A DNA stretch of 36,167 nucleotides from a virus (lineage: Duplodnaviria; Caudoviricetes). Made by a program: the position numbers and the translations under genes. Positions within the stretch are counted from its first letter, which is position 1. Every line of letters starts with the position of its first letter. Of the stretch, positions 3,198 to 25,519 are shown piece after piece. The stretch spans positions 1 to 36,167 of the IMG/VR virus record IMGVR_UViG_3300030410_000026; one strand, 5' to 3'. The notes beneath the pieces are model-generated. The model saw only the letters and a list, made by a program, of their open reading frames with translations, had not been told where the DNA came from and searched no databases.

Positions 3198-3209
3198 TTA
3201 ATCCCCCTT

Positions 3210-4346: not shown

Positions 4347-4348
4347 TT

Positions 4349-5264: not shown

Positions 5265-5286
5265 TTTTATACCCCCCATAATTTTT

Positions 5287-5547: not shown

Positions 5548-5596
5548 TCTATTCCCCCTTTTATAAATTTAATGTGAACTCAACTTGAAATGTGGC

Positions 5597-7600: not shown

Positions 7601-7646
7601 TCGAACCCTCCCCATAATTCTTTTTCGTTAATTTCTCTTGCTTTAT

Positions 7647-7820
7647 TTATTCAATTCTTTCTTTGTCACATTCTATTGTTTCAAAATAAGTTACTAGCCC
7701 TTCCTGCATTTGCATAAAATCCATATTCTTTATTTTTTCAATAAATTCTTTTCTTCCATCTAAATTTAATTTATAAAAGCAGTCATGTTTAAGTGCCGAA
7801 TATAGTTCTTCCCAGCTCAT
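7647..7820 (-). CDS. hypothetical 57-aa protein
   Basis: Read by hand (MSWEELYSALK...KERIE); GGGGGT RBS. Confidence 0.55.
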   Translation of the reverse strand: MSWEELYSALKHDCFYKLNLDGRKEFIEKIKNMDFMQMQEGLVTYFETIECDKERIE

Positions 7821-7822
7821 AT

Positions 7823-9121: not shown

Positions 9122-9122
9122 A

Positions 9123-10016
9123 TCATTCCTCCAATCCAGTAAAATCAAAATTATTAGAATTAGAAGTTTGGTTAACATTGTTATTTTTATTGTTATAGTT
9201 ACCCTCTATTATTTTTTGAAGGTTGGCGGGTTTGAATATCCAATCAAAACAGCAGCCTTTCCAACTCCCTTCTCTGCCACTTAGAAAATCGCTTTTATTA
9301 ACCACATTAAATAAATTCTGAAAATATCCAATATTAGGGTTGCCTTTCCATCTTGTATTAATTATTTTTTTTCTATTATCTTCAATAGATTTTATCTTAG
9401 GTAACATAATACAAGTTGAATTAAATAAATCTAAAATTTGTTTATATGGTGTTGGTTCTACCGACAAGATATTCTTATTAACATTATTAGAACATTCTTT
9501 ATCATTCTTGTTTATATTGTCGGGTGTTCGTTGCTCCCTTGTTGCTCCCGCAAGGTTTTCGTTGTCGGGTTCGTCGTTGCCCTCGTAATTCTTTAAGTTT
9601 TGGTAAATCTCGTAGTTATCTATGTTGACGAGCAAGCCTTGCGTTGCTCTCGTCGTCGTTATCATTGTTGCTCCCGTGCCACCTTCGTATGAGGTCGCGT
9701 ACGGTTTACGGTAATTATTTCCATTTGGCTCTCTAAGCCACTCTAGCACCTGAAATATTTGGTCTTTGCTTGGTGTTACTTTTCTATATCCTATGTGCCA
9801 TGAACATTTTTCCATAATCTCTGGAATTGAGATTCTTAATTGCCCTCTCTTTAATAATTTGTAATCTTTGTGTTGTGCTTTAGATAATATAAATATCCAA
9901 ACTTTTAAATATAATGGTGGCTTACTCCATATCCCACTTTCTATAATTTTTCTTGATAGAAGGATACAACCACCTGTTATTTTATGATCACACATTGTTT
10001 CACCTTCTAGCCCCAT
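9123..10016 (-). CDS. phage replication initiator (replisome organiser)
   Basis: N-terminal GCILLSRKI...IWSKP; C-terminal FDWIFKPANLQKIIEGNY; directly upstream of the helicase; start may be 9995. Confidence 0.8.
   Translation of the reverse strand: MGLEGETMCDHKITGGCILLSRKIIESGIWSKPPLYLKVWIFILSKAQHKDYKLLKRGQLRISIPEIMEKCSWHIGYRKVTPSKDQIFQVLEWLREPNGNNYRKPYATSYEGGTGATMITTTRATQGLLVNIDNYEIYQNLKNYEGNDEPDNENLAGATREQRTPDNINKNDKECSNNVNKNILSVEPTPYKQILDLFNSTCIMLPKIKSIEDNRKKIINTRWKGNPNIGYFQNLFNVVNKSDFLSGREGSWKGCCFDWIFKPANLQKIIEGNYNNKNNNVNQTSNSNNFDFTGLEE
9517..9676. repeat. iteron-like repeats inside the initiator gene (putative lytic origin)
   Basis: GTTGCTCCCT 9530, GTTGCTCCCG 9541 and 9667, GTTGCCCTCG 9576, GTTGCTCTCG 9643; TTGTCGGGT at 9517 and 9562; GC-rich patch in AT-rich DNA. 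Confidence 0.65.
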
Positions 10017-10019
10017 TTA

Positions 10020-10163
10020 CTATTTGGCTTCCTCCTTACTCACTTCTTTAGCTTTCTTTTCCCAGTATCTAATATCGGCAAGTTTTTTCTCGTCTTTGTG
10101 TGCAAGTCTGTATTTTTTGTTATATTCGTATCTTAAATCTTTTGCTAATTTAGATAGCCCCAT
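10020..10163 (-). CDS. small basic 47-aa protein (MGLSKLAKDLRYEY...RYWEKKAKE)
   Basis: Read by hand; AAGGAGG RBS; TATAAT upstream. Confidence 0.65.
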   Translation of the reverse strand: MGLSKLAKDLRYEYNKKYRLAHKDEKKLADIRYWEKKAKEVSKEEAK

Positions 10164-10529
10164 CTTTCTATCCTCCTTATGTTTTCTACTTTCTTTTATT
10201 ATATGCTTAATTCTAAGAATTACTACTCCTTTTGAGAAATATTTTCTTGTTTTGGGAAATTAGTTTTTACCTCTTTTGAATTTCTTAATCATCATTCTCG
10301 AAGCGCTCTCAAATTTATAATCGTTAGCTGCTTTCGATGTACTCCTTATGGATTCTTCTTTGAGCCGTTTTATACGTTTTCTTTTTTCGAGCATTTCATA
10401 AGTAAAAATTGCCTTTTCGTGGTTATCCATTTTGATACCTCTTTTCTTTGTTTTGAGGAACTTTACTACATGGTAATATGATTGTGCCTATTTTATATAA
10501 AAGTGTCTGTATGGTACTTTAAACTTGCT

Positions 10530-10558
10530 AAAAAGGAAGGGTAGATACTAACTACCCT
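10530..10558 (-). terminator. intrinsic terminator after the recombination operon
   Basis: GGGTAG/CTACCC stem followed by a pyrimidine/T run on the minus strand. Confidence 0.5.
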
Positions 10559-10564
10559 ATTAAA

Positions 10565-10768
10565 TTATTTTTTCACTCCACAATGAGAGCAATAAGACTC
10601 TTGAACCGTAAATTTAATAACTTTTTCAGCAATATTGCCAGTTTTTGCAATATGTTTATAATGCCCCTCCCATTCACCACTTAAATCATGGAAATAATCT
10701 ATTTTCTTGCCCTCTTTTTCATAATGTTTTCTTAGCTCGTCTTTGATTCGTTCTATGCAATCACACAT
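10565..10768 (-). CDS. small Cys-containing protein
   Basis: MCDC...YCSHCG. Confidence 0.65.
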   Translation of the reverse strand: MCDCIERIKDELRKHYEKEGKKIDYFHDLSGEWEGHYKHIAKTGNIAEKVIKFTVQESYCSHCGVKK

Positions 10769-11655
10769 TATTTTTTACCTTCTTTAACTTCAAACGGTGT
10801 GCCTGCGAACTCGTCTTTGGCTTCCGGTTCTTCTTTCATTTCTTCAAAATCTACATCATTTGCTCCGTTGTCTACATAATCAACGCTGTTAGAATCAAAA
10901 TCTTTGTCCATAATATTATCTTTAATAACTGCTTGATCTGCTTCGATTGCCCTCTGCATTTCAATAGATAACATTCCATATTTGCTAAGCAGAAGTTTAA
11001 GAACTGTCTTAGTTGCCATTGCGTCAAAATCTGTGGTCCACTTACTAGACTTTACTACCCATTCTTTGTTACTCTTGTAAGTTTGCGAATATTTTTTAGC
11101 GTGTTTTTCTAATTGCTCAATAGTCATATATAAAGATTTTTCGTAACCGTTTAATAGCCTAAAATAAGCTATATAACCAATAACTTTATCTGATGCAACT
11201 TCCTCGTTATTTAGTTCTACTTCTCCGGTTAACCTATTTACGTGCTTAATTTCTCCTTCGTATACCTCTGTAGCATTAATTGTTTTGTATTGCCCTGTTC
11301 TCATAGCTAACTGGACGAATCCGCGCCATCCCACGATCATTTGTGCCTTCTTTACAAACTTATCTCCAATCTTAGTATTAAAAGGGACTAAGTACGCATA
11401 CCCCAAATTAGGATCTATCGGTAAATCTAAAGTAGCTGCAACTACTGCGCTGGAAATAATAGACTGTGGTTCAACTCCTGCTAAGGCTTGGTTATTGCTA
11501 ACATTAATTATCGAAGCCATAAACCCTACAGCTTTTTTACCTAGTATCTCATCAAATCTTTTTTTATAATTAATGTCATTAAGCAGCCCTTTTACTGTTG
11601 CTATTTGTTTTTGATTCGTTACTTTTTCTATTGCTCCTGTTCCATTTACATTCAT
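10768..11655 (-). CDS. recT: RecT family ssDNA-annealing recombinase
   Basis: AATLDLPIDPNLGYAYLVPF, GWRGFVQLAMRTGQY, HAKKYS, FDAMATKTVLK. Confidence 0.92.
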   Translation of the reverse strand: MNVNGTGAIEKVTNQKQIATVKGLLNDINYKKRFDEILGKKAVGFMASIINVSNNQALAGVEPQSIISSAVVAATLDLPIDPNLGYAYLVPFNTKIGDKFVKKAQMIVGWRGFVQLAMRTGQYKTINATEVYEGEIKHVNRLTGEVELNNEEVASDKVIGYIAYFRLLNGYEKSLYMTIEQLEKHAKKYSQTYKSNKEWVVKSSKWTTDFDAMATKTVLKLLLSKYGMLSIEMQRAIEADQAVIKDNIMDKDFDSNSVDYVDNGANDVDFEEMKEEPEAKDEFAGTPFEVKEGKK

Positions 11656-11658
11656 AGT

Positions 11659-12234
11659 TTATACTCCTTTTTCATATTTATTTTTTAATGTTTTACGTGA
11701 ATCTCTAAGTAGACTGCTAATATAACTCTGGCTCATTTCTAATTCTTCGCCTACTTCATATTGATTTTTCTCTCCGAAGTAAAATAGATTCAAAGCTTTT
11801 TTCTGGGTAGGTTTAAGATTGCTAATAATTGTCTTTAATTCTTTAATTGTGATATCATCTATAGACGTTTCTGCATAATCTTTTTCGTCACTTAAAGCAT
11901 CTTCTTGTTTTACAGAATGTCCATCGTTATTTATCCAGATGATATCTTCAAGACTTCTTTCGTTTTTAATCTTCTTTACTTTTCTCAAATACATTAGAAT
12001 TTCATTGTTGATTACAGTTGCGAGGAAGGTCATAAAAAAGTTACCAGTTTCAATTTTGTATGAATTAAAGGCTTTTACTAAACCAACGTTTGCAGATTGT
12101 ACTAATTCATCTATATCTTCACCAGTTTTTAAAAATCCCCAGGCAGTTTTAAAAATATACTTTTTAAATTGCTCATAAACTTCGTTACAATCCATTTCTC
12201 TTATTTCATCTTTCATTTTTATTAACTTTCTCAT
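11659..12234 (-). CDS. sigma-70 family sporulation-type sigma factor (sigE/sigK-like)
   Basis: DELVQSANVGLVKAFNSY, NNEILMYLRK (region 2.4 like SigE/SigK), QYEVGEELEMSQSYIS (region 4.2); start after GGGAGG. Confidence 0.85.
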   Translation of the reverse strand: MRKLIKMKDEIREMDCNEVYEQFKKYIFKTAWGFLKTGEDIDELVQSANVGLVKAFNSYKIETGNFFMTFLATVINNEILMYLRKVKKIKNERSLEDIIWINNDGHSVKQEDALSDEKDYAETSIDDITIKELKTIISNLKPTQKKALNLFYFGEKNQYEVGEELEMSQSYISSLLRDSRKTLKNKYEKGV

Positions 12235-12253
12235 GCTTTCCCTCCCTGTAGAA

Positions 12254-12520
12254 TTACTCTTCTGGCATTTCATAAACTAAGTAGTCTGCATCAAGTCTCT
12301 TAATATTCGTTACAAGGGTAGGCGCTGCTTTTAATAGTTCAATATTTTTTATCCTATCTTGAATTTCGTTTAATACTTCGGTTGCTCTTTCGCTATTTGG
12401 ATAGACACCCAACACTATAAAATCATCACCAGCAAATGTATAAATACCGCATCTGTCTGCTTGAACCCTATTGCAATTAATTAATTCTGTCTTATCTTGG
12501 CTTCTGATCCATATTCTCAT
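12254..12520 (-). CDS. hypothetical phage protein
   Basis: MRIWIRSQDK...LGVYPNSERATEVLNEI...YEMPEE, a recurrent Firmicutes phage family as I recall it. Confidence 0.7.
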   Translation of the reverse strand: MRIWIRSQDKTELINCNRVQADRCGIYTFAGDDFIVLGVYPNSERATEVLNEIQDRIKNIELLKAAPTLVTNIKRLDADYLVYEMPEE

Positions 12521-12521
12521 T

Positions 12522-12812
12522 TTATTTTCCCTCGCTTTCTTTTAATTTGAAGTAATCTTTCCAAAAATCTTCTTTCTTTTTTCTTATCCATCTGTCCTCT
12601 TCATAATCCTTAATTTTTGCTAATACTTCTTTACCACATTCATTGCAATATGCCTGATTTAAAATAGGGATTAAAATAATGTCGTTATACCCTATTAAAT
12701 CTTTGAGACATTTATCACAAATTGGAAAACCGTTATCTGAATACTTAATTAGGTCCATAAAGTTAATTTTTAGAAAGCCTATGCCAATTTTATTTCTATA
12801 AAACTTAGCCAT
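12522..12812 (-). CDS. Zn-finger-like protein
   Basis: CDKC...CNEC. Confidence 0.7.
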   Translation of the reverse strand: MAKFYRNKIGIGFLKINFMDLIKYSDNGFPICDKCLKDLIGYNDIILIPILNQAYCNECGKEVLAKIKDYEEDRWIRKKKEDFWKDYFKLKESEGK

Positions 12813-12962
12813 TTATTTTCCCTCGCTTTCTTTCATAAATTTAAACATTCCCTCTGCGTGATAGTCAGAAAGTATTTGTTTCCTTATAAATTCAGTTTTC
12901 TTGTAATAATTTGGGAAGTCTGATAAAATCAATGCCTTGACTGTTGCTTTATTCGTTATCAT
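12813..12962 (-). CDS. hypothetical 49-aa protein
   Basis: Read by hand (MITNKATV...KESEGK); ATGA overlap. Confidence 0.6.
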   Translation of the reverse strand: MITNKATVKALILSDFPNYYKKTEFIRKQILSDYHAEGMFKFMKESEGK

Positions 12963-13138
12963 TCTTCTACCTCAAATTCTTCTAAGTAGTTCTCATAAGC
13001 CTTATCGCAACAACAACCTTCACACATTATTGGTTCTCCCCCGTAACAGTGCACCCCTCTGCCCTCTTCGGGTATTGGACAATATTCACATAATTCTTCT
13101 GAATCAATTTCCTTAAATGTTTTTGCTTTATTTGTCAT
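12959..13138 (-). CDS. small Cys-rich protein
   Basis: CEYC...HC...CEGCCC; start MTNK at ATGA overlap. Confidence 0.65.
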   Translation of the reverse strand: MTNKAKTFKEIDSEELCEYCPIPEEGRGVHCYGGEPIMCEGCCCDKAYENYLEEFEVEE

Positions 13139-13470
13139 TCTTCTACTAGCCATTTGCCGTTTAGAATTGTCTTAGCATCATCATCGTGATAACCATACAA
13201 AGCTTCCAATACTTCCGTTAGAAAATAATAGTGGCTCCATGTATCAGGTTTAAATCTCTTACCGCTATTAACCGCTTCCATAAAGCTTACAGGCTTTTGG
13301 ACTAATTCCCACACATCTTCTAAATAAAAACGTCTTGCGAATCCACTTGAACCTATGATTAATAAAGAATCATTATTTGTAACGGCTAATTTACAATCTT
13401 TACCTTTAAATCTTAACTTTCTGTTTTCTTCAAGCATTTTCATAACTTCTGAATTTTTATATGTTTTCAT
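13135..13470 (-). CDS. hypothetical phage protein
   Basis: 111 aa; WELVQKPVSFMEAVNSGKR. Confidence 0.7.
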   Translation of the reverse strand: MKTYKNSEVMKMLEENRKLRFKGKDCKLAVTNNDSLLIIGSSGFARRFYLEDVWELVQKPVSFMEAVNSGKRFKPDTWSHYYFLTEVLEALYGYHDDDAKTILNGKWLVEE

Positions 13471-13490
13471 TTTTATTACCCCTCTCTTTT

Positions 13491-14423
13491 TTAATAAACC
13501 CTCATTTGTCTGGAACTGCTCTCTTTGACCGTGAAAGATTTCTTATGAATAGTTTTCCAGGTTACTTTATGTTCTCCGATAGTGCCTACCTCTGCTGTTC
13601 CCATTCGTACCATAAATTTTTGTTTTATCATATCTACTTTTGTTTTTATTTCTTTTTCGTCGGCTGTTAAGTTTTTATACTCGGTGTAATCTGCTTCAAG
13701 TTCCGACATATCGACGGTATTCCCTGCTGTTTCTTCTGGATATCGAAAGGAGAGAGCCTCCGTATCTGCTGCTATCCCAATTACAAGTGGCTCAACTTCT
13801 TTTAAAACATTATTTTCCCAAAAATCCTTTGCTTTGGTTACTAAAACTCGTATAAATTCCTCATTTCGTGGAACAAATTCCCATGCTAAAGTCTTGCCAA
13901 TTAAATAAGCGAGTAATGTATATTGAAGTCCTGAAACATACATATAAAATTGAACTTGTGCATAATAAGAATCTGGTATATTGTCGTCTACCCATTCTTT
14001 TCTCATCATTTCACTTGCTGTTTTTATTTCTAGTATTCCTACGCCTTTACCTTTTAAAGTAACGATACCGTCAATATTAGCAAGGCAGCACGGCGTTTCT
14101 ATTGACCTCATCATGTACGGGTATTCTTCTACTATTATTTCTTCTTTAGTTCTTATAGCATACTCTGTACTTAGCCATTCACGTATTACAGGTTCTAATC
14201 TCTTGCCGTATTCTGTGTGAATATTACCCTCAAATGGTTTCCCTTCCCCTATTTTATCTAAGTAGAGCGATAAAGGAGATTTATATTTGTTTAATCCAAG
14301 GAGTGCGCCTACTTCACTACCTCCGATTCCTAAAGTACGATTTTTCTTCCATTGTTCTTCGGTTATTTCTTTCGTGCTAGCTGTTATGACATATTTACCT
14401 GATAACATTTTTATTTCATCCAT
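13491..14423 (-). CDS. YqaJ-type (lambda Exo-like) exonuclease
   Basis: RTLGIGGSEVG, ANIDG, LEIKTA, YYAQVQFYM; likely partner of RecT. Confidence 0.92.
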   Translation of the reverse strand: MDEIKMLSGKYVITASTKEITEEQWKKNRTLGIGGSEVGALLGLNKYKSPLSLYLDKIGEGKPFEGNIHTEYGKRLEPVIREWLSTEYAIRTKEEIIVEEYPYMMRSIETPCCLANIDGIVTLKGKGVGILEIKTASEMMRKEWVDDNIPDSYYAQVQFYMYVSGLQYTLLAYLIGKTLAWEFVPRNEEFIRVLVTKAKDFWENNVLKEVEPLVIGIAADTEALSFRYPEETAGNTVDMSELEADYTEYKNLTADEKEIKTKVDMIKQKFMVRMGTAEVGTIGEHKVTWKTIHKKSFTVKESSSRQMRVY

Positions 14424-14426
14424 GGG

Positions 14427-16115: not shown

Positions 16116-16317
16116 ATTTTCCTTCTATTTCAAAATTTTGTAGTAGGTCTCCTACTTGTAGTTTTTCTTGATGAAATACAAAAACATTTAAATATAAAAA
16201 ACCATCATCGCCCATAACGCAGCCACACTTGAAACATTCTTTTAATAATTGATTTGCTAACCTGATAACCTTTTCTTGTGAAGTTTCTTTAACTTTCAAA
16301 ATCCTTTGTTTTTTCAA
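16087..16317 (-). CDS. hypothetical protein
   Basis: TTG start after GGGGAGGG; shorter than the track ORF. Confidence 0.5.
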   Translation of the reverse strand: MKKQRILKVKETSQEKVIRLANQLLKECFKCGCVMGDDGFLYLNVFVFHQEKLQVGDLLQNFEIEGKYEGGKTIAN

Positions 16318-16495
16318 CTTTACCCTCCCCTTTCTTGCTCGGCGTATTTGCCATTTCCCACGTGTTAATATCATCTTTCATGTCTAAGAATGTTGAGTTC
16401 ACTTTCCGATCGTAAATTACGTCTTGAATTGCCTTATACCATAGTCCCGCATTATTCTCACTTTCAAATATTATTACCTTGCCTGTAAGTTCCAT
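16289..16495 (-). CDS. hypothetical protein
   Basis: 68 aa, GGGAGG RBS. Confidence 0.6.
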   Translation of the reverse strand: MELTGKVIIFESENNAGLWYKAIQDVIYDRKVNSTFLDMKDDINTWEMANTPSKKGEGKVEKTKDFES

Positions 16496-16543
16496 TAAAA
16501 CAACCCTCCCCTTTTTTAATGTAGATTATTATTGTAATGTTCA

Positions 16544-16915
16544 TTAACCTTTAATAGCTTCAAGTGATAAATCAACAGCCCATTTATTACCACAATTATC
16601 ACATTCTAAGTTTAATTTTTGTTTAGTATCATCAAATTCGTATTCACTATGATTACATTTTTTACACTTAGGGCAATCTAACAAGTCTGTATTTTGTAAA
16701 TCATCATCTAAATTACTTAATTCTGTTTCTGTTTTGTCAGTATACAAATCCATGAATACAAGGCATCTTTCGTCTAAATAATAATTATCAAAATCTCCCT
16801 CGTATGTTCCAACTTCATTGTTGCAACTACTACCAATTGGAATAATCCCACCACAATATGCACATCTGTGTAATTTCCTAGTTTTCTTTATCTTTTTACT
16901 TTCCCAAAAACTCAT
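16544..16915 (-). CDS. Zn-finger protein between two dif-like sites
   Basis: KTRKLHRCAYCG, CPKC, CDNC. Confidence 0.75.
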   Translation of the reverse strand: MSFWESKKIKKTRKLHRCAYCGGIIPIGSSCNNEVGTYEGDFDNYYLDERCLVFMDLYTDKTETELSNLDDDLQNTDLLDCPKCKKCNHSEYEFDDTKQKLNLECDNCGNKWAVDLSLEAIKG

Positions 16916-16956
16916 AATCTTATTATCTCCTTTCGCATTATATTCAAAATATGTCT

Positions 16957-17154
16957 TTACTCCCCCTTTATAATTACATCTGTAGTCACATTAAAAAACT
17001 CTGATAACTTTAAAATCTCTTTCATTGTAAATTGTGATTTTCCATTTTCTTTATTTACGTAACACGTTGTTGTAATACCTAATATTTTCGCTACATCTTT
17101 TTGTAATAATTCTCGCTTTGCTCTTAATACTTTTAAACTAAATACTTTTCCCAA
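16957..17154 (-). CDS. Cro-like XRE HTH regulator
   Basis: 65-aa HTH, divergent from the repressor, first gene of the lytic operon. Confidence 0.85.
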   Translation of the reverse strand: MGKVFSLKVLRAKRELLQKDVAKILGITTTCYVNKENGKSQFTMKEILKLSEFFNVTTDVIIKGE

Positions 17155-17200
17155 ATTGTAGCCCTCCTTCTCTTAAATTGAAATATTTCTTTATACTTAT

Positions 17201-17229
17201 ATTTTATTCCTCAAAGTGAGGAATTGCAA
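17201..17229 (-). promoter_or_regulatory. lytic sigma-A promoter with a palindromic operator in its spacer
   Basis: Minus strand TTGCAA-17 nt-TAAAAT; inverted repeat ATTCCTCA-aag-TGAGGAAT at 17206-17224. Confidence 0.75.
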
Positions 17230-17373
17230 GCATTTTATTAAATATTATTGAAAATAATTCTTTTATAATTTATCTCATATAATAAATATTTGTTCCCAAA
17301 TCGTGAAATGTAGTATATGATAAAAGAAATATATGTATATATTAAATATACAATTAAAAATGGAGGAATTAAT

Positions 17374-17739
17374 ATGGATGTTGGGAAAAAATTAAGACTA
17401 ATGAGATATAAAAGAGAATTAACTCTTAAGGATGTAGAAAAAATGTTTGCTGCTGTCAATATTAAGGTACCGTATAATACTTTAAGCGCGTATGAGACAA
17501 ATATACGTGAGCCTTCTTTTGATAAACTTGGGATGTTTGCAAAGTTTTACAATGTCCCGGTTGGTTATTTTTTCGGGGATAAAATAAGTAAAAAATCTAT
17601 AACAGATGAATTATTAGATAGACTTATAGACGATAATATTATTACTTCCTCAAATAAAATAAGTGAAGAAATATCTGATGTAATTTTAAATACAGCTAAA
17701 GCAGATTTACAATTAAGACTTATGAGGGCAGAAAACTAA
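17374..17739 (+). CDS. CI-like XRE repressor (no S24 peptidase domain visible)
   Basis: GGAGG RBS; LRLMRYKRELTLKDV...LSAYETNIREPSFDKL. Confidence 0.85.
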   Translation: MDVGKKLRLMRYKRELTLKDVEKMFAAVNIKVPYNTLSAYETNIREPSFDKLGMFAKFYNVPVGYFFGDKISKKSITDELLDRLIDDNIITSSNKISEEISDVILNTAKADLQLRLMRAEN

Positions 17740-18071
17740 ATCTCTGCTCTTTTCTTTTTATTAGCTACCCATAATGAATCGTTTTCTCTAACAAGTTCTT
17801 CAATTCTTTTATGCAGTGCTTTTTCTCTTTCGATTGAGCCTTCCATATTTTTTATAATAACCTGGGTATAGCAATCTTGCACAATACGGCTTAAATGTTC
17901 TTCTTCTGGAATATCCTCTACAAATTCAAGTAGGTCAGTAAGAGCACTTTTAAATGTTTCACGATTCTTTAAACTAGAATTTTCAGGCTTAAGTATTATT
18001 TTAAGACATTTAATTTCCCTCGTGTAGTTGTCTATTAACCCTGTAATGTACCCTATCAATTCTTTTTTCAA
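17736..18071 (-). CDS. hypothetical protein, convergent with the repressor
   Basis: 111 aa, AAGGGGA RBS, C-terminal coiled coil. Confidence 0.6.
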   Translation of the reverse strand: MKKELIGYITGLIDNYTREIKCLKIILKPENSSLKNRETFKSALTDLLEFVEDIPEEEHLSRIVQDCYTQVIIKNMEGSIEREKALHKRIEELVRENDSLWVANKKKRAEI

Positions 18072-18264
18072 TTTTTAATCCCCCTTTTTTATTTCCTGTA
18101 TTTTTAATATAATTACACAATACATGAAATAATTACTAAATGCAATAGTTTTTAAGTAACTTTGGTAATATTTTTTTATTATTATGCATAGACTTAAAAA
18201 GTAGAGAATGGTATCATGGAATAATGCTAAGAATAAGAAAAAAGTGTAATAAGGAGAATTAACC

Positions 18265-18582
18265 ATGAACGGAAAAGAAATTGAAAGGCATAGATTAGAA
18301 CATAGGCTATCACAAAGAGAAATTTCAGAGGTTGTGGGATGTACGCCGAAAACCATTGGTAATTGGGAAAATAGTGTGGGAAGTCCTAACCCTATTCAAG
18401 TAGAGAAACTAAGAAAGCTATTTGGATTAGATATAGAGAACGAGGTTAAAAGCTTTACCGTAAAATTAGTGCAACAACTTTTAGACGACAAAATAATAGA
18501 TGATGCAAATACAATACCCCAAGAGATTATTGATATGATAATCGCAGCCTTAAAACTAGATATAAAAAACAGCACTAAATAG
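18265..18582 (+). CDS. second XRE HTH regulator, paralogue of 17374..17739
   Basis: LSQREISEVVGCTPKTIGNWEN; C-terminal LLDDKII...IIDMII like the first repressor. Confidence 0.85.
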   Translation: MNGKEIERHRLEHRLSQREISEVVGCTPKTIGNWENSVGSPNPIQVEKLRKLFGLDIENEVKSFTVKLVQQLLDDKIIDDANTIPQEIIDMIIAALKLDIKNSTK

Positions 18583-18598
18583 TTTGTGCTGTTTTTTT
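18564..18598. terminator. bidirectional intrinsic terminator
   Basis: AAAAAACAGCAC-10 nt-GTGCTGTTTTTT. Confidence 0.7.
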
Positions 18599-18691
18599 CA
18601 TTTGACCTATTAAATCTTTAATGTTTATTTTAGACAAGTCTATTTTGTACCTCGTTTTTAATTCCTGTATTTTCCTTTGTAGATTTTTCAC
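18575..18691 (-). CDS. 38-aa basic peptide under a LexA box (candidate antirepressor)
   Basis: GAGGGGTGA RBS, GTG start, MKNLQRKIQELKTRYKIDLSKINIKDLIGQMKKTAQTI. Confidence 0.55.
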   Translation of the reverse strand: MKNLQRKIQELKTRYKIDLSKINIKDLIGQMKKTAQTI

Positions 18692-18711
18692 GTTATCACC
18701 CCTCGATTAGA

Positions 18712-18753
18712 AGTATATTCCTTTATGTAAACAATTACAAGAACATTTGTTCG
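18712..18753 (-). promoter_or_regulatory. sigma-A promoter with a Gram-positive SOS (LexA/DinR) box
   Basis: GAAC-ATTT-GTTC at 18741-18752, next to minus-strand TTGTAA-17-TATACT. Confidence 0.7.
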
Positions 18754-18764
18754 ATTACTTTGCA

Positions 18765-18794
18765 TAAAAAAAGAGCAAAGATTAGTTTGCTCTT
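18765..18794 (-). terminator. terminator closing the small-gene array
   Basis: AAGAGCAAA/TTTGCTCTT stem plus T run on the minus strand. Confidence 0.7.
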
Positions 18795-18819
18795 GGATGG
18801 ATTATATTTGAAATGTGAA

Positions 18820-19083
18820 TTATTCAGTTCCATCTTTTTTAATAATTATTTTAGGAACTGATGTTAAGTATATTTTTTCTAACATTTTTTGAAACGGTTT
18901 TATTGCTTCTCTATATTCTTCTATTATTGCTTTTTCATATCCTGGTCTTGATAACTTTAAACATTCCGTAGCTGTTTTAGGTTGAAGTTTAGATTCATAT
19001 TGCTTACCAATAGATGTAATATACTCCTGTACTTTATTTATTGATTTTTGAGTTTCAAAATCATATTCATGTGTAATTTTCAC
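18820..19083 (-). CDS. hypothetical cassette gene
   Basis: 87 aa, AGGAGG RBS, GTG start. Confidence 0.7.
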   Translation of the reverse strand: MKITHEYDFETQKSINKVQEYITSIGKQYESKLQPKTATECLKLSRPGYEKAIIEEYREAIKPFQKMLEKIYLTSVPKIIIKKDGTE

Positions 19084-19129
19084 TTAATTATTCCTCCTTT
19101 TTAATTCGCCATATTTTTGAATTGTGAAA

Positions 19130-19360
19130 CTATTTATAATCATTACATTGTGGACATCTTGTAGGATTTTCAAATGTTCCAATAAGTTCTTTATTGTATA
19201 ATGTACAGTGCTTATCTTGCTTATAGGGACAATCTAATGCACAACAACCCGTATCCATTGTATCTACTTTTATATTAAATTCACTTATAATTGGACACGC
19301 ACATGTCATTCCTGCTCCACTTACTGCTGGTTTTACTATTTGTCCTCCAGTCTGTTTCAT
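19130..19360 (-). CDS. Cys-rich cassette gene
   Basis: 76 aa, eight Cys. Confidence 0.7.
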   Translation of the reverse strand: MKQTGGQIVKPAVSGAGMTCACPIISEFNIKVDTMDTGCCALDCPYKQDKHCTLYNKELIGTFENPTRCPQCNDYK

Positions 19361-19411
19361 TTTATTACTCCTTTCTTTTATTTCGCATTTTAATCAAACT
19401 CCGTAACACTT

Positions 19412-19635
19412 TTACTTATTACATTCTCCCCTAGCTTCTTCCATAGTAATCCCATCAAAAGCCAATTTTCTACCGCATATAGGGCAATAGTTTATCTCCA
19501 TACTAGCATTACCATCATTAGTTTGCCCGCTAAGCCAATACTCATCATTTTCTAGTGTTATATACAAGTCTACCCAATTACCTTGGACTATTCGCTTTTC
19601 TACCCCCTCTTTGATATTACATATACATTCTTTCT
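19412..19635 (-). pseudogene. cassette gene lacking a start codon ((M)KECICNIKEG...INYCPICGRKL...)
   Basis: Open frame with a YCPxCGRKL motif; its repeat copy reads TTACTAAAGAAA where others read TTACTAAATG. Confidence 0.6.
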
Positions 19636-19648
19636 TTAGTAACCCCCA

Positions 19649-19843
19649 TTATATTCCAAACTTTTCTCCACACCAGCAACAATAATTTTGTGAGCAATCC
19701 AAAACTATCTTTCCACACTCACTACAATAAGGCATTTCGAGTTCAATATTAGACGCCGTAATAGGTATTTCTTTTTTACACGTTTCACAAAATGCTTTTT
19801 CATCACCACAAATATATCTTTTTATCATTTTAAACTTAGCCAT
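19649..19843 (-). CDS. Zn-ribbon cassette gene
   Basis: CETC, CSEC, CCWCG; start MAKFK inside the repeat. Confidence 0.7.
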   Translation of the reverse strand: MAKFKMIKRYICGDEKAFCETCKKEIPITASNIELEMPYCSECGKIVLDCSQNYCCWCGEKFGI

Positions 19844-19873
19844 TTTAATAACTACCCCCATTATATTTAAAAC

Positions 19874-20050
19874 TTATTTTAATATTAATACCTCTGCTTT
19901 TACAATTAACTTCGCCATACATTTCTTGCATAGCCTAAAAGTAGATGTCTGACTATCGCTTAAACCTACTGATATACTAAAAACTTCATCATTTGAATTA
20001 CAGGAAGAACAACAAATATAGTTCTTGCCTACACCTTTAATCTCTATCAT
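19874..20050 (-). CDS. 58-aa Zn-finger-like cassette gene
   Basis: Read by hand: CSSC...LCKKC; GGAGG RBS. Confidence 0.65.
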   Translation of the reverse strand: MIEIKGVGKNYICCSSCNSNDEVFSISVGLSDSQTSTFRLCKKCMAKLIVKAEVLILK

Positions 20051-20086
20051 TTAACTACCTCCATTGTGGGTACTACCACATATCTA

Positions 20087-20326
20087 TTAATCAGTAATTT
20101 TTATAACGCCGTCCTGGATAACTTCGTATACTTTTAATCCACATAAGGTAAGTTCAAACCCATCATCTTCAGTTCTATTCATAACGATTTTACACTGTGT
20201 CTTTAATAGAGCTACTAGGCTTTCACTTATAAATATAGTTTTAGGATTAATGCCTTGATGGTCGCATCTGTAATCATGTATTAGCCTTTGAACAGTTTCG
20301 ATTATGTTACTATCATATTCATTCAT
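20087..20326 (-). CDS. hypothetical cassette gene
   Basis: 79 aa, starts in the repeat. Confidence 0.7.
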   Translation of the reverse strand: MNEYDSNIIETVQRLIHDYRCDHQGINPKTIFISESLVALLKTQCKIVMNRTEDDGFELTLCGLKVYEVIQDGVIKITD

Positions 20327-20349
20327 TTAGTAAGCACCTCCATTATATT

Positions 20350-20598
20350 TCAAACTTTTTTAATAAATTCCCCAATGAAGTCTATATATTCATCTTCCTC
20401 TTCATTAGTTTCTATTTTCTTGGAACTATCAGTATTTAATATCAAACAAGGTTCAATAACCCCGAAAAACCCATAAGTAGATAATTCCACTTGTTCTAGT
20501 TCCTGAATGTTTCCAAATATATTGTTTGAGTTTCTTATAAAAATTTCAGTTCCATCTTCAATTTTAGTAAGTAATTCTCTCAATCTTTCTACTTTCAT
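20350..20598 (-). CDS. hypothetical cassette gene
   Basis: 82 aa, starts in the repeat. Confidence 0.7.
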   Translation of the reverse strand: MKVERLRELLTKIEDGTEIFIRNSNNIFGNIQELEQVELSTYGFFGVIEPCLILNTDSSKKIETNEEEDEYIDFIGEFIKKV

Positions 20599-20620
20599 TT
20601 AGTAAGCACCCCCATTATAT

Positions 20621-20788
20621 TTATTTATTTTCGTTTAATATTTCTAATGCTAAGTTTAACCCAGTTTTTTCACCTAATAGTTCCATCACTTTTAAATCTG
20701 TCAAATTTGAATCTTTCCTATTGTCTATGTGAATTTGAATTAATTCTGCCTTACGTTTTATTTCACTAATAGCTTTCATAATTTTCAT
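20621..20788 (-). CDS. 55-aa cassette gene
   Basis: Read by hand (MKIMKAISEI...LNENK); spans exactly repeat to repeat. Confidence 0.65.
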   Translation of the reverse strand: MKIMKAISEIKRKAELIQIHIDNRKDSNLTDLKVMELLGEKTGLNLALEILNENK

Positions 20789-20820
20789 TTAGTTACTACC
20801 TCCATTATATTTAAAAATAT

Positions 20821-20994
20821 TTATTCTTCTGAAATTCTGCCCTCTTTTCCTAATCTTTGCATAACTTCCAGTAATAATACTCCTACTTTGCATATTTCAT
20901 CATCATTCATCATTGGTATTAATTTATGACTTATTTTTATTAAATCTCTCTTCCTAGCCATTGTACTTTTTACTTTATATATTTCATTTAACAT
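20821..20994 (-). CDS. 57-aa cassette gene
   Basis: Read by hand (MLNEIYKV...RISEE); spans repeat to repeat. Confidence 0.65.
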   Translation of the reverse strand: MLNEIYKVKSTMARKRDLIKISHKLIPMMNDDEICKVGVLLLEVMQRLGKEGRISEE

Positions 20995-21016
20995 TTAGTA
21001 AGCACCCCCATTATAT

Positions 21017-21277
21017 TTAAAAATTTGTGCAATGCCCTGTATTATCTATGTTCAAATGGTGTGTAGTGCATCTATCATCAACGTTATATTCGCACTTAGC
21101 GTTACAAAATATCATTTGCTCAACCTTTTCTCCCTTTAGATATTCCTCTGCATCTCTTATGTCCGAAAAGCTTTTAAACTCCATACCTTGAAATCCTTTT
21201 GTTAAGTCAGAACATTCAGCCCATGTTTCAACTATTACGTTATTTTTTCTACCTTTTTTGATAGCATATAATTTCAT
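21017..21277 (-). CDS. RNase H1 N-terminal (viroplasmin-like) domain plus short Cys motif
   Basis: KLYAIKKGRK...TWAEC...GFQGMEFKSF...AEEYL; C-terminal CNAKCEYN...C. Confidence 0.75.
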   Translation of the reverse strand: MKLYAIKKGRKNNVIVETWAECSDLTKGFQGMEFKSFSDIRDAEEYLKGEKVEQMIFCNAKCEYNVDDRCTTHHLNIDNTGHCTNF

Positions 21278-21306
21278 ATATTTATCCTCCTTGTAATGTT
21301 GCCTAA

Positions 21307-21335
21307 GTTATACCATCTTTGGTATACATTATAAA
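21307..21335 (-). promoter_or_regulatory. putative sigma-A promoter heading the small-gene array
   Basis: TTTATA-17-TATAAC with extended TG; overlaps inverted repeat TATACC/GGTATA. Confidence 0.5.
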
Positions 21336-21514
21336 GGGTAACAGTTTCCGTTACTGTGAGCTAGTTCCTTCAAAAATAGGATAAATCACCCTGCAATTAC
21401 CATATAGCCAAGCTTTAGGCGATATTAACAGTAACAGTTTTCGTTACTGCAATCCAATAAATTGATGGCTACAGTAACAGTTTTCGTTACTGTCAGTAAC
21501 AGTTTTCGTTACTG
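21336..21514. repeat. four 21-bp iterons with inverted arms, CAGTAAC-AGTTTTC-GTTACTG
   Basis: Exact copies at 21429, 21472 and 21494; variant at 21336. Confidence 0.9.
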
Positions 21515-21528
21515 TAAATAATTTTATA

Positions 21529-21978
21529 TTATGTACAGCCTCTTGAGACCCCACGTTTCCATTCATTTTTAATAACAAACTTTTCAGTACCATAATAACT
21601 CCACATATCACTAAATCCATATATATTACATTCTCTTGTTGCGTATCTATACTCAACAACTTTAACAAATCCTAGCTTGATTAAATTGTCTATACTGTTT
21701 TGAAATGTACTCATACCCATCTTTATGGTCCATAGTTGGCTTTCGTCAAGTCCTAAATATTCTTTCTTAGGTATACTTATATTATTTTTATTGCTATTTA
21801 TATAAACATATTTCACGTAATTGGCTGAATATTTTTTAAGCATATATAGATAAAGTTTAATATCATTTCCGCTTAGTTCTCCCCATGCTTTACTTTCCAT
21901 CATGTCAAAATAAATAGCGTCCATTCTCCCACCTTTAGTACTTTGAAATTTTTGGTAGTTTTGTCTCTTTTTCGCCAT
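21529..21978 (-). CDS. winged-HTH Rep-like protein
   Basis: AWGELSGNDIKLYLYM...STFQNSIDNLIKLGFVKV; next to iterons. Confidence 0.6.
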   Translation of the reverse strand: MAKKRQNYQKFQSTKGGRMDAIYFDMMESKAWGELSGNDIKLYLYMLKKYSANYVKYVYINSNKNNISIPKKEYLGLDESQLWTIKMGMSTFQNSIDNLIKLGFVKVVEYRYATRECNIYGFSDMWSYYGTEKFVIKNEWKRGVSRGCT

Positions 21979-22022
21979 ATTATCCCCCTTGTATTTTAGG
22001 GAATAAATGATATACTTACATT

Positions 22023-22085
22023 ATAATTAAAAGTAAATATATAATTCATCCGTTTGCCAGTGTGACCGCACTGGTTTTATTTTTT
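22023..22085 (+). ncRNA. predicted antisense (copy-control) RNA
   Basis: Plus-strand TTGTAT-16-TATACT with extended TG at 21989-22016; CCAGTG/CACTGG hairpin plus T run at 22057-22085; ends approximate. Confidence 0.55.
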
Positions 22086-22238
22086 GCCATCAATCCACTT
22101 ATTCACCTCATCAGCATCGAACCTTACAAGCTTACCAAGTTTCTTAAAAGGTAATCCTTCCTTCCTCCACCTTTCTACTGTTTGCCTTGATACGTTTAAA
22201 TTCTTGGCTACATCATTAGTTGTTAATAACTCATACAT
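22077..22238 (-). CDS. 53-aa excisionase/MerR-like HTH protein (Cop-like)
   Basis: Read by hand: LLTTNDVAKNLNVSRQTVERWRKEGLPFKKLGKLVRFDADEVNKWI; AGGAG RBS; TTGCAA-17-TACTAT upstream. Confidence 0.8.
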   Translation of the reverse strand: MYELLTTNDVAKNLNVSRQTVERWRKEGLPFKKLGKLVRFDADEVNKWIDGKK

Positions 22239-22391
22239 ATAATCACTCCTTATAAACGCATAGTATCACAACGTATACAATGTTGCAATACTATTTCCAA
22301 TGTTCCAACTATTAAACCTTGATTTTATTTGCTTTTTCTATAAATTTGAAATATGGAACTCTTTAATACTCAATTATTAAACTATTTTAAA

Positions 22392-22424
22392 AATAATACT
22401 TTAATAATACTTTAATAATACTTT
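22392..22424. repeat. 3 x 11-bp tandem repeat AATAATACTTT
   Basis: Three exact units; related GTAATACT units at 22990 and 23001. Confidence 0.8.
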
Positions 22425-22428
22425 GGTA

Positions 22429-22968
22429 TTACTTCTTATATTTTGTATAGAACTCGAAAATAGCTAAACTCATTAAGTCTTGTCTTTTTATACCACTGTA
22501 ACTACTACATAACAAATCAAACAATTTATAAATAGGCTCATACACTTTTATAGATTTGGCTGTAATAGTTGTCTGTAATTCCAATGGCAGCGTGTTAATA
22601 TCGAGCTGAGGTATGTCGATTACATTAATATTACTTTTGTAATACTTTAGCATTTCTAATATATCTTCTTTGTGTTCTATGAGTTCCGAAATGTCGTCAT
22701 ACTTTTGTAATTCTATAGTATTACTATAACTTACAGGTGCTCTCCTGGGGCTGATTTGATAAGGTTGTATTACTAAAGTAGTATCTTTGGCATACTGCTT
22801 TGTAATAGCGTTAAAGACATACCCAACCTTTAAAAATCTCTCTCTAACTGTACTTCGACTTATCCCGATCGAGATACATATTGTCGTTAAAGTTTGTGCT
22901 ATTAAATTGCTATTCATATACTCTATTTGTTCATCAATCCCCATGTTGTCAAATTCAAATTTATTCAT
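22429..22968 (-). CDS. plasmid-type DNA-binding protein (HTH plus RHH-like), partition candidate
   Basis: TLTTICISIGISRSTVRERF HTH; C-terminal SIKVY...QDLMSLAIFEF; flanked by TAATAC repeats. Confidence 0.6.
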   Translation of the reverse strand: MNKFEFDNMGIDEQIEYMNSNLIAQTLTTICISIGISRSTVRERFLKVGYVFNAITKQYAKDTTLVIQPYQISPRRAPVSYSNTIELQKYDDISELIEHKEDILEMLKYYKSNINVIDIPQLDINTLPLELQTTITAKSIKVYEPIYKLFDLLCSSYSGIKRQDLMSLAIFEFYTKYKK

Positions 22969-23152
22969 TTTATTTCCCCCTTTTTATTTGTAATACTAAA
23001 GTAATACTTTTATATTACCACGCTATTGGCTTATATGTAAATGAAGAATAGAATGAAATTGCAAGTAAGGTAATGCCTTACAAAAACATGATCAGTGAAC
23101 CCACACTATAAAAGGGAATTTTATTTTAAAAGGCCTGGGATAGAATACATTC

Positions 23153-25519
23153 TTAGCCTTTTTTGTTGCATAAAAAAAGAAGCTTGTTAGGCTCCTTAAA
23201 GGGTAGTTTAGATATAAAACTTGCATAGCCACGAGAATAATAGATTAGATTTAGAGAATTAAACTTTTCCATATCTCTTAAATCTTCAAACTCAAACCCT
23301 ATTAATTTGTTTTCATATCGCTTAAAGTCCTTTTCGCTTGTGCCTGTCATAAACATAAAACTTGCCCCTGCCCCTTCTAATGTATCTATTAATATATCAA
23401 TCTGCCCTGTGTATTGGCATGATAAAATAAACTTGCAACCAAACTTTCTTGTCTGCGGAAGAATTTCATCATCACTAAGCATTTGCATAGCTGTTTTCGT
23501 TTGAAAGATTTCATCAATACATATATGGGTAGGCTTAGGCTGTTTATTCCATTTACCTCTTATCTCTGTAGCAATCCATATTTTAGAGAGTAAAAAAGTA
23601 GTTATAACATTCTTAGAGTGCTTTTTAAAAGCATCTTGTGGCATACGCACAATTATAATTTTGCCCTTTTCAAGTTCTTCGGCAAAATCAATATTACCTT
23701 GTGAACCCCGGTTAAACATATACTTTAATTTAAAATCCTCCCTTAATAAGCTTATTCTATCTAGTATACTGTCTATGTGGTCTATTTTAGTGCCTATTAC
23801 ATACGCTGTAGGCTCTTTAGCAGTTATCTTAGAGTATTCGTCTATGTCATGCAAACCTTTAACCTCGTCCTCTAAAAACGTTGCTTCGTCTATAGTCAAT
23901 TTATTAATATATGCTTCTCTTACCTGAAAATCTTCTAAGCATCTTACAACTTCTTTTAAACTACTTTCCCCTGTGGCGAATACTACATTGGCTGCGGCAC
24001 TTAAATATTTCCGCATACGAGATTGTAATGGTTGTTCGGGATTTATGCTATCTACAAAAGTTAATACTTGCTGTGCTTGACGATTAGTCAACTCTAATTT
24101 ATCAAAAGTGTTCATATTAGGATCTATTTTATATTCATTAAAAGCGAATCCCTGTATGCACTCTGGTTTAGTATAATCTAAAACGATAACATCTTCTTTA
24201 GGCAAATAGTTAATTACTTCTTGCGACATTTCACAATTTTTAATAAAATCTATTATTACGCCTCCCTCTTTTCGAGTATTTACAAACCTATAGTAATTAG
24301 CCATAAAGGTACTTTTGCCACTCCCTTGTGAACCATTTAGTATAAGAGGCAAACTCCCCTTATCATATTTATCTTCTAAATAAGCTTCTTGCCTATCTCC
24401 CTTGCACTTAACTGTACCTAAGGATATATAACCATGGTCTAATTCTTTAGGTACCTGAACTTCGTTAACTTCTGTATGTTTTATCCCTAAACTTCTCATT
24501 AAGTTTCGTCCTGGTTGGCTAATAAAGTTTTGGCACTCGTCCATGCTAAAAGTATTTTCATCTACGTTTTTAAATTTATAGTCCTCTACATCAATAATTC
24601 CATTCGGTTTTACCTTTTTGGATATTAGTTCATTGTCCTCGTCTAAAATTCTAAAAGCTTGGCAAACTACCTGTGCATTATTTTCTTGCCTCGTTTTATC
24701 TACGCTATTAGTAGCAATCATTATTTGTGCATCTATTACAGTGGCTTCTTTTTTCATATTCGTAGAATTACTCAATCTTTTATTAACCTCTAAAATATTT
24801 GAGGTAACAAGCAACTCGCTAAAAACTGTATTAATCTTTTCTTCACTCCCTGTGAAATCTTGGAATACTTTTAAAATACTATTAAAAATATAATTCATAA
24901 AACTTAAAACTGATTTTATTAAGTATTCAGGAGTTTTTTTATCCTTTACGATTATTTGCATATCCTCTATTTTCTTTCGAGTATCAGAATATTTCTTTTG
25001 CCAATTAAACTGTGACTTAGGTAAAAAATTATAAATTAGTGTTACCCTATCATCATCTCTCATTATCTCCATTACTGCTAGGATTGAGTTTAAAGGTTCG
25101 TTACTTTTACGGTCCACTTGCAAACTTAAAGCATCTTCTTTTTTATAATTAAGCTGATAATAAATAGTATTAGTGTTAAAAGATTCTAACTTAGGGACTA
25201 TATTTAATTCTACCTTGCTCCATATTTCTCTAATCTTTTCAATTATGATATTTAAGTAAACTTCGGGTGCAATAAAATAAAAGCTAGTATCTGTTTTCTT
25301 AATGTCTATAACATAGCTTATCTTAAAATTTGTTTCAAAGAAAAGCTTCTTTTGCTCTACCTTTATACGCCTGCTAATTGACTTGTAAGCGTGTTGAATT
25401 GCTTTGACTATATTAGTGCTATTATAGTTTCTCGTTGCCTTATGGGGTGTTATTTGGAGATATACGTACTTTGGCTTAATTAACTGAAAGTATTTATTAA
25501 CTGGCATAGAAATACTCAT
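23153..25519 (-). CDS. VirB4/VirD4/FtsK-HerA superfamily P-loop ATPase
   Basis: GSQGSGKST, VIIDF, HICIDE, RKFG..ILSCQY. Confidence 0.8.
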   Translation of the reverse strand: MSISMPVNKYFQLIKPKYVYLQITPHKATRNYNSTNIVKAIQHAYKSISRRIKVEQKKLFFETNFKISYVIDIKKTDTSFYFIAPEVYLNIIIEKIREIWSKVELNIVPKLESFNTNTIYYQLNYKKEDALSLQVDRKSNEPLNSILAVMEIMRDDDRVTLIYNFLPKSQFNWQKKYSDTRKKIEDMQIIVKDKKTPEYLIKSVLSFMNYIFNSILKVFQDFTGSEEKINTVFSELLVTSNILEVNKRLSNSTNMKKEATVIDAQIMIATNSVDKTRQENNAQVVCQAFRILDEDNELISKKVKPNGIIDVEDYKFKNVDENTFSMDECQNFISQPGRNLMRSLGIKHTEVNEVQVPKELDHGYISLGTVKCKGDRQEAYLEDKYDKGSLPLILNGSQGSGKSTFMANYYRFVNTRKEGGVIIDFIKNCEMSQEVINYLPKEDVIVLDYTKPECIQGFAFNEYKIDPNMNTFDKLELTNRQAQQVLTFVDSINPEQPLQSRMRKYLSAAANVVFATGESSLKEVVRCLEDFQVREAYINKLTIDEATFLEDEVKGLHDIDEYSKITAKEPTAYVIGTKIDHIDSILDRISLLREDFKLKYMFNRGSQGNIDFAEELEKGKIIIVRMPQDAFKKHSKNVITTFLLSKIWIATEIRGKWNKQPKPTHICIDEIFQTKTAMQMLSDDEILPQTRKFGCKFILSCQYTGQIDILIDTLEGAGASFMFMTGTSEKDFKRYENKLIGFEFEDLRDMEKFNSLNLIYYSRGYASFISKLPFKEPNKLLFLCNKKG

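Follow-up and report, generated by a model that had tools for sequence, protein, structure and literature searches.

What is a short sequence doing at junction after junction of an array of ten tiny phage genes? The array lies in the virus record IMGVR_UViG_3300030410_000026 (Duplodnaviria; Caudoviricetes); the window analysed here is this entire record, 36,167 bases with an estimated completeness of 63%. A first-pass annotation had read the array as an integron-like gene-capture platform, with directly oriented tyrosine-recombinase sites of dif-like geometry between single-gene cassettes. Our analysis led to another view. The array is neither a dif array nor an integron but a hypervariable mini-gene operon with a lineage-private junction repeat that is most likely used by general recombination. 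The repeat is a shared spacer of stop codon, ribosome-binding site (RBS) and start codon, and it likely has a second function as a short homology joint for the gain, loss and swap of whole genes, a reading to which we give a probability of about 0.62.

The junction repeat

The ten short minus-strand open reading frames (ORFs) described before were recovered, running from 18820 to 21277, as was the terminator at the array end (18794-18771). Six full junctions and one partial junction share the pattern TAAATATAATGG(A/G)GGT-spacer-ATG. The exact form ATATAATGG[AG]GGT is found at the six, and the seventh (20048) has AATGGAGGT alone, so that the RBS-type repeat lies where the first-pass annotation had placed it (six exact core copies), including its remark that the 20048 copy is only partial. 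When a 23-nt repeat pattern was used, five matches were obtained within three mismatches and none in 100 shuffles. The seven leaders that carry the repeat gave a mean pairwise score of 32.9 vs 13.3 for the 46 other gene leaders of the window, and 0 of 5000 random seven-leader sets reached 32.9. At the partial junction, a 5-bp GC hairpin stands in place of the left half of the repeat.

The repeat is asymmetric, occurs in one orientation and sits at the RBS, with five of the six full copies preceding an ATG. At two junctions (21017/20994 and 20621/20598) the full stop-to-start interval is the same 28 bases, and at a third (20350/20326) it is a 29-base variant of the repeat; the repeat thus equals the stop-to-start interval in 3/6 full copies. 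Copies 1 and 3 are identical over 28 nt, and 20 of the 21 copy pairs have just 5-19 identical bases in common. The sixth full copy, at 19635, lacks the T of the ATG, and the open frame behind it runs for 73 codons. Because this junction reads TACTAAAG where the others read TACTAAATG, gene 8 is left without a start codon; its homologues start with MKECIC or MSNKCIC.

A related site had been claimed for every junction, which did not hold. The leaders at 19360, 19083 and 21277 score as background against the seven (mean 14.2). With a matrix of the left half, 22% of the 50 control gene ends score at least as high as the 19380 junction and 40% at least as high as the 19103 junction, and only the terminal 18794 site is borderline (2/50 controls). 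The 19103 and 18794 junctions are somewhat alike (1.8% of control pairs).

Searches with NCBIfam and PADLOC gave no name for any of the ten array proteins apart from an RNase H piece in gene 1, and Rfam gave 0 matches on 16500-23200. In gene 1, the nucleic-acid-binding N-terminal domain of RNase H1 is fused to a Cys-rich tail and the catalytic domain is missing.

Homology boundaries in related sequences

A profile of the 149-aa (amino acid) gene upstream of the array fetched 30 loci. One of them, L008, is syntenic on both sides, with a phrog_2727 gene (46% over 69 aa), a xis-like gene (79%), the winged-helix gene (46%) and the convergent repressor (53%). Between the last two lie ~21 mostly small ORFs, and only one of the ten window array genes is shared (gene 8, 66%). 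When 20 of these ORFs were queried, one matched the window array and one, YopX-like, weakly matched a gene elsewhere. The neighbours of gene 8 differ between the window and L008 on both sides, and its DNA homology, which begins near codon 3, ends at the GRKL codons, the last conserved ones. In L008 these codons are directly followed by AATGGAGGTTACTAAATG, which is the right part of the window repeat, and the junction upstream of the shared gene reads TTAAATATTAGGAGG. The 21 leaders of L008 (one start being off by a base) have a shorter spacer of the TAGGAGGT type, with a mean score of 18.0; the control maximum was 15.6 in 1000 random sets, drawn from window leaders and not from those of L008. 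In a second locus, L009, a third gene set follows the same upstream module. The region between the conserved flanks is hypervariable, and the junction drifts between lineages. Together these would be easier to explain by homogenisation through recombination than by a fixed enzyme target. Among its ~18 mini-genes the L008 array (2093-7374) also holds an HNH nuclease, a DNA methyltransferase and the YopX-like gene.

Further breakpoints were found in run X1, a glacier metagenome by its label and possibly the source of the stretch, where the phage stretch itself is on two contigs (45,248 and 19,293 bases). Six X1 records aligned to 17000-23500, two being the phage itself. Record 3 (279 bp, depth 5.8 vs 12.9) contains the beginning of a gene-8 homologue that has 13 differences from the window; three letters provide its start codon, and next come 21 bases that agree with the junction and then unrelated sequence. 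In record 5 (205 bp) the match covers 38 bases around copy 1, with 4 differences, and the sequence on either side is unrelated; records 4 and 6 have matches of 33 and 36 bases. On 1-17300, X1 gave short scattered pieces besides the phage itself and no close second phage, so records 3 and 5 would come from other elements or fragments. No record of runs X2 and X3 aligned. As side observations, the loose end of record 3 has a TACCCACAA stretch similar to the GC hairpin of the partial junction, and in the contig of the source run the start-codon loss of gene 8 (19412-19636) is present with the same letters, with no indel listed there.

A scan for the 16-nt core over 48 of 64 parts found at least 118 viral loci, 80 of them with full flanks; each has one exact copy and none is syntenic. 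Two of these, L061 and L117, are unrelated to the window phage and 99.4-99.9% identical to each other over 8 kb. They differ by 90 bp, a segment that comprises one 21-codon ORF and its leader and has ATAATGGAGGT at its borders (L061 reverse 4001-4110 vs L117 4001-4020), this mini-gene being cut out at the same 11-nt core. A further difference is a nearby 13-bp indel at another short repeat, so the deletion needs no special site, and the core apparently acts here as a deletion joint via generic short-repeat recombination. Homology thus ends at the junction in four comparisons: L008, the two X1 contigs and the L061/L117 pair. Another locus (L141), a 4.9-kb fragment, has no array but carries two core-like copies at a distance of 242 nt. 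Seven loci (the L091 group) that diverge 11 nt past the core were set aside, as they resemble coding sequence.

Other searches yielded little. A looser repeat pattern had no match in three other records. By blastn, the region had no phage match and one 60-bp plasmid match, and a 501-bp piece gave short chance-level matches only. Anchored searches of viral contigs with the winged-helix protein alone, the repressor or the shared gene were unsuccessful. The shared gene was absent from 385 scored genomes (16 further genomes being unscored) and had weak matches to three C. difficile phage records only.

Readings of the repeat

We propose a model where RecT with the YqaJ exonuclease, or replication slippage, would cross over between spacer copies. 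A crossover between any two copies would retain a working stop, Shine-Dalgarno sequence (SD) and start, and recombinants would therefore stay expressed. Incoming genes with a similar leader could enter the array, and repeated gain and loss would spread and homogenise one spacer through it while the spacer drifts between phage lineages. RecT acting on the repeats had been mentioned in the first-pass annotation as the alternative; with RecT and the YqaJ exonuclease both in the window, it is the better mechanism. Of the gene-capture platform, the variable, cassette-like region with homology that stops at the junction stood, and the dif geometry and the single site family at all ten junctions did not. 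From the excerpts of PMC3945230, the minimal pairing segment is 23-27 bp for Red-beta vs 31-34 for RecA, and Rad52-like recombinases work on short and diverged homology. The 28-bp pair exceeds the Red-beta figure.

Several points weigh against this model. The other copy pairs fall below the Red-beta figure, and three of the ten leaders are without the repeat. No close relative with the gain or loss of a single array gene was found, and L008 is too distant for crossover mapping. The exact repeat had 0 matches in viral contigs and 0 in genome contigs, and it was found in 0/401 genomes of the family of G003 with two mismatches allowed; with one exact core copy per locus, the core scan shows no wide exchange pool. 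X1 gave no contig with a clean excision or a circle of a window gene. Its records 3 and 5 are single, short, low-depth contigs, and, as X1 is probably the source of the phage, they are not independent. The L061/L117 indel may have arisen in assembly.

An unlikely but serious alternative is that the repeat is a translation signal only, that is, a coupling or re-initiation spacer or the site of a translational regulator, spread by gene conversion and with no role in gene turnover. The repeat is indeed asymmetric, in one orientation and placed exactly on stop, SD and start, like the SAS in the excerpts of PMC3203893, and in 24 of the at least 118 viral core loci the core serves as a single ordinary leader of an ORF of at least 35 aa. 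However, this would not account for homology that ends at the junction in the four comparisons above, nor for the copy that persists before gene 8, whose start codon is lost, and 28 identical bases are beyond the need of translation alone.

It is improbable that a dedicated site-specific recombinase, encoded by the unseen part of the phage or by the host, acts on an asymmetric site with the ATATAATGG core and no dif geometry. Shufflon-type recombinases do use asymmetric sites. Every copy is in direct orientation and borders on single genes, with the core as the best-kept part, and the terminal site retains a weak left half. There is also room for such a gene, since the longest recorded contig for one window protein is 64,557 bases, leaving ~28 kb of the phage outside the window. 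Nevertheless, the profiles PF00589, PF00239 and PF07508 (tyrosine and serine recombinases) had no match in the 36-kb window, in agreement with the first-pass annotation, whereas they matched in 14, 13 and 4 of 14 control genomes, respectively. The spacer has drifted in L008, and pdif modules, according to a title in the reference list of PMC9771954, have inversely oriented flanking sites.

The dif geometry itself was scored with the arms given in the first-pass annotation, which may differ from the dif of the likely clostridial host. The three plus-strand 28-mers are at their coordinates (18794, 19103 and 19380), but their 11-6-11 geometry did not survive: they match 11, 13 and 12 of 22 arm positions, keep 5, 2 and 3 of the 8 inner ATAA/TTAT bases, and have no inverted arms. 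On both strands of the window, 4619, 560 and 1752 positions, respectively, score as well. When the best 28-mer was taken within 55 nt of every one of the ten junctions, scores of 12-14 were obtained, and in 3000 random draws a score of 12 was reached in 85%, 13 in 49% and 14 in 20%. A search with a host dif pattern in five genomes found backward controls equally frequent. An Xer/dif or pdif array was accordingly rejected, arm matches and inner bases being within the null. The interpretation as tyrosine-recombinase sites became improbable, as no such recombinase was found in the 36 kb and the repeat is asymmetric, built of translation signals and drifted in L008.

The sites of integrons, attC, have paired RYYYAAC/GTTRRRY boxes and a single-strand hairpin. 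Neither paired boxes nor an attC-like hairpin was found at the junctions, and no integron integrase lies beside the array (no PF00589 in 36 kb; both flanks are other genes), so an integron array was rejected as well. DNA folding z scores at the seven repeat junctions were -1.6 to +1.3, and of 18 folds only the minus strand of 19380 reached -2.9 (-2.8 kcal/mol).

A very improbable addition is a role of the junction in RNA pairing as well. Its complementarity to early codons in the mRNA of the lytic replication initiator would let the two transcripts block each other. Copy 1 pairs with 9898-9926 at 27/31 bases. This match has 32.6 bits against 23.5 +/- 1.8 in the shuffle null (0/300 reached it), 0/18 real control blocks reach that value (27.4 at most), and the best of 45 other leaders has 22.4. 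The predicted duplexes, of -21 to -33 kcal/mol, would cover the SD, and the AGTAAGC codons, the pairing partner of the GCTTACT spacer, are different in the six homologous loci examined. Yet the match was found post hoc (p about 1e-3), and only copy 1 is above the null, its excess coming from its coding flank; the other five full copies have 23.6-26.0 bits. Conservation of the peptide KPP(L/M/H)YLK(V/I)W extends through the initiator family to a Staphylococcus phage, and an unrelated homologue scores 32.0. A triplet-shuffle null reached the shorter match in 4/150 and synonymous redraws in 43/2000. The L008 leaders do not match the window initiator, and the loci of homologous initiators contain no antisense copies. 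The complementarity is thus probably due to chance. Should the swap-point spacer be an antisense device after all, which we strongly doubt, each added gene would bring one more copy complementary to a conserved stretch of initiator mRNA; an array transcript expressed from the prophage would damp lytic replication, its own or that of a superinfecting relative, and the lytic transcript would in turn cover the RBSs of the array. No description of such antisense pairing was found in the open-access literature searched.

That each copy is a promoter is barely credible: a perfect TATAAT is present in 6/6 full copies, but the best -35 matches just 1-4 of 6 bases, no copy has the TG of an extended -10, L008 junctions are without TATAAT, and a transcript would start in or after the SD, as the TATAAT lies 15-16 nt before the ATG.

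The homology-joint model can be set beside known systems, again from excerpts of the papers cited. In T4-type phages, mini-circles arise from crossovers between Shine-Dalgarno and -10 boxes of PeSLs (PMC2839356). As here, PeSLs are repeated intergenic elements flanking small orphan genes in a hypervariable region (PMC2839356, PMC4122927), genes are gained and lost by homologous recombination between copies with crossovers near the SD, and the excerpts identify no dedicated recombinase (PMC2839356). However, PeSLs span ~100 bp with a promoter and a stem-loop, giving each cassette its own transcription signals, while here 28 nt of translation signals only are repeated in one operon of a likely temperate clostridial phage; no -35, extended -10 or shared hairpin of PeSL type was found at the repeats. 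The SAS of Cluster K mycobacteriophages (PMC3203893), for which a role in translation was proposed, is likewise asymmetric and found in a single orientation where the RBS lies; it is restricted to one phage group and conserved beyond the need of 16S pairing. In contrast, it is 13 bp long, scattered over the right half of the genome and often paired with inverted repeats (ESAS), and the window repeat is not its GGGATAGGAGCCC consensus, the resemblance being positional only. The window copies, unlike SAS, follow one another in succession, take in the upstream stop codon and coincide with the edges of homology.

Boundary sequences (PMC3029335, PMC3945230) are short repeats at module edges used by general recombination, an example being the 29-bp repeat around four genes in LRRHood. 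As with them, the window has a short direct repeat where genes meet, and the phage encodes an annealing protein with an exonuclease, but here six consecutive single-gene junctions each carry the boundary. Xer/dif, pdif and integron attC systems (PMC9771954, PMC1914069) also have arrays of small unrelated genes with a recurring element, and the 28-nt length coincides with that of dif. The window repeat differs from them in having no inverted 11-bp arms, conserved inner ATAA/TTAT or hairpin, with no recombinase in 36 kb, and in being the translation signal itself.

The locus is a compact case suggesting that phages may turn over tiny genes of unknown function without a dedicated enzyme, since a 28-base spacer that is stop, RBS and start at once would leave an expressed operon after a crossover. 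The principle is already published for promoter-bearing PeSLs and boundary sequences. It is extended here by a promoter-less version, in a likely clostridial phage and beside an origin-like module; no new recombinase system is shown. No description of promoter-less stop/SD/start junction arrays was found in the same open-access literature.

Features of the array and its surroundings

Table 1. Coordinates of the junction copies, array genes and neighbouring features in the window
Feature	Position	Strand	Remarks
Junction copy 1	20992..21019	minus	28-nt stop-to-start spacer, identical to copy 3
Junction copy 2	20786..20823	minus	GGAGGT-AGTAACTAA variant; stop 10 nt upstream of core
Junction copy 3	20596..20623	minus	28-nt stop-to-start spacer
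Junction copy 4	20324..20352	minus	29-nt spacer, stop (TGA) to start
Partial copy	20048..20089	minus	AATGGAGGT-AGTTAA only; 5-bp GC hairpin (20065-20080) before it
Junction copy 5	19841..19876	minus	
Junction copy 6	19634..19663	minus	Overlaps stop of 19649-19843; next gene's start codon lost
Gene 1, 86 aa	21017..21277	minus	RNase H1 N-terminal (Cauli_VI) domain and Cys-rich tail, PF01693 E 3e-13; ordinary leader
Gene 2, 57 aa	20821..20994	minus	Weak phrog_14113
Gene 3, 55 aa	20621..20788	minus	No family
Gene 4, 82 aa	20350..20598	minus	No family
Gene 5, 79 aa	20087..20326	minus	No family
Gene 6, 58 aa	19874..20050	minus	Two CxxC; no family
Gene 7, 64 aa	19649..19843	minus	Cys-rich; start set at 19843, after junction RBS
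Gene 8, 73 open codons without start codon	19412..19633	minus	Sole gene in common with L008 (66%)
Gene 9, 76 aa	19130..19360	minus	Cys-rich; ordinary leader, contains 19380 28-mer
Gene 10, 87 aa	18820..19083	minus	Ordinary leader, contains 19103 28-mer
Array end	18765..18821	minus	Weak match to the left half (TTTCAAATATAATC) before an intrinsic terminator (9-bp stem, T run)
Candidate sigma-A promoter	21307..21335	minus	TTTATA-17-TATAAC, with TG; read from sequence
Four palindromic CAGTAACG(A/G)AAACTGTTAC repeats ending in CCTTTATA...TATACC box	21327..21517	minus	Putatively origin-like
149-aa protein, likely winged-helix replication initiator	21529..21978	minus	HTH_36/RepA_N-like, features only
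Xis-like helix-turn-helix (HTH) gene (22077-22238) and phrog_2727 gene (22429-22968)	22077..22968	minus	Conserved upstream flank
HTH_3 repressor-like gene	18265..18582	plus	Convergent with array; conserved downstream flank, 53% to L008
RecT (10768-11655) and YqaJ/RecE-type exonuclease (13491-14423)	10768..14423	minus	Pfam E 8e-46 and 1e-27; candidate recombination machinery
Inverted near-copy of junction	9898..9926	plus	Inside replication-initiator gene (9123-10016, minus); codons SKPPLYLKVW

The single promoter proposed for the array can be read as TTTATA-17-TATAAC, but a consensus scan made no call and the -35 of this promoter overlaps a conserved box. As the proposed -35 lies inside that box, the claim of a single promoter is plausible but unproven. 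The box belongs to the module upstream of the array, where the 149-aa gene with its repeats and the box looks like an initiator with its origin. One of the 17 members of the protein cluster matches HTH_36. In the 25 related loci examined (of 30), the repeats, where present, are locus-specific, and the CCTTTATA...TATACC box, scored by eye, has the same orientation in 14/25 loci and is inverted in ~8. The phage also has a lytic initiator and DnaB, and the winged-helix module may be a second, plasmid-type replicon. Behind the genes of the likely winged-helix family of 140-185 aa (714 representatives at E 0.001) come locus-specific direct repeats and a conserved CCTTTATATATACCAT-like box (L002-L031); the family is found in phages and in island-like elements beside integrases (L029).

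Beyond RecT and the YqaJ exonuclease, the window encodes DnaB, the replication initiator, a sigma factor, SpoIIID, an endolysin, three HTH repressor-like proteins and a 2464-aa polyvalent protein, and a 788-aa protein encoded upstream of the array is 49.8% identical to a Clostridium phage phiCp-D protein. Because of this gene content and the phiCp-D match, the host is likely clostridial and the phage likely temperate.

Some minor observations were made elsewhere in the window. The 788-aa protein (23153-25519) is ATPase-like (phrog_5156) and common to 119 phage records, mostly of Bacillus; the neighbourhood of its phiCp-D homologue includes ParM, a replication gene and a series of small hypothetical genes. 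Five short repeats with an 11-bp period (TACTTTAATAA, plus strand) at 22386-22444 overlap the end of the phrog_2727 gene, inside which related copies are found; they are possibly a centromere-like or operator array for the phrog_2727 protein. The polyvalent protein (28762-36156) has ART-PolyVal, RadC-like JAB and LPD38 domains and adjoins lysis genes. The SpoIIID homologue carried by the phage is encoded at 6735-6995 and its sigma factor, of the sigma-70 type, at 11659-12273. The consecutive early genes at 12520 and 12812 have in common a 19-nt leader ending in AAGAAAGCGAGGGAAAATAAATG, which is a second, smaller junction repeat.

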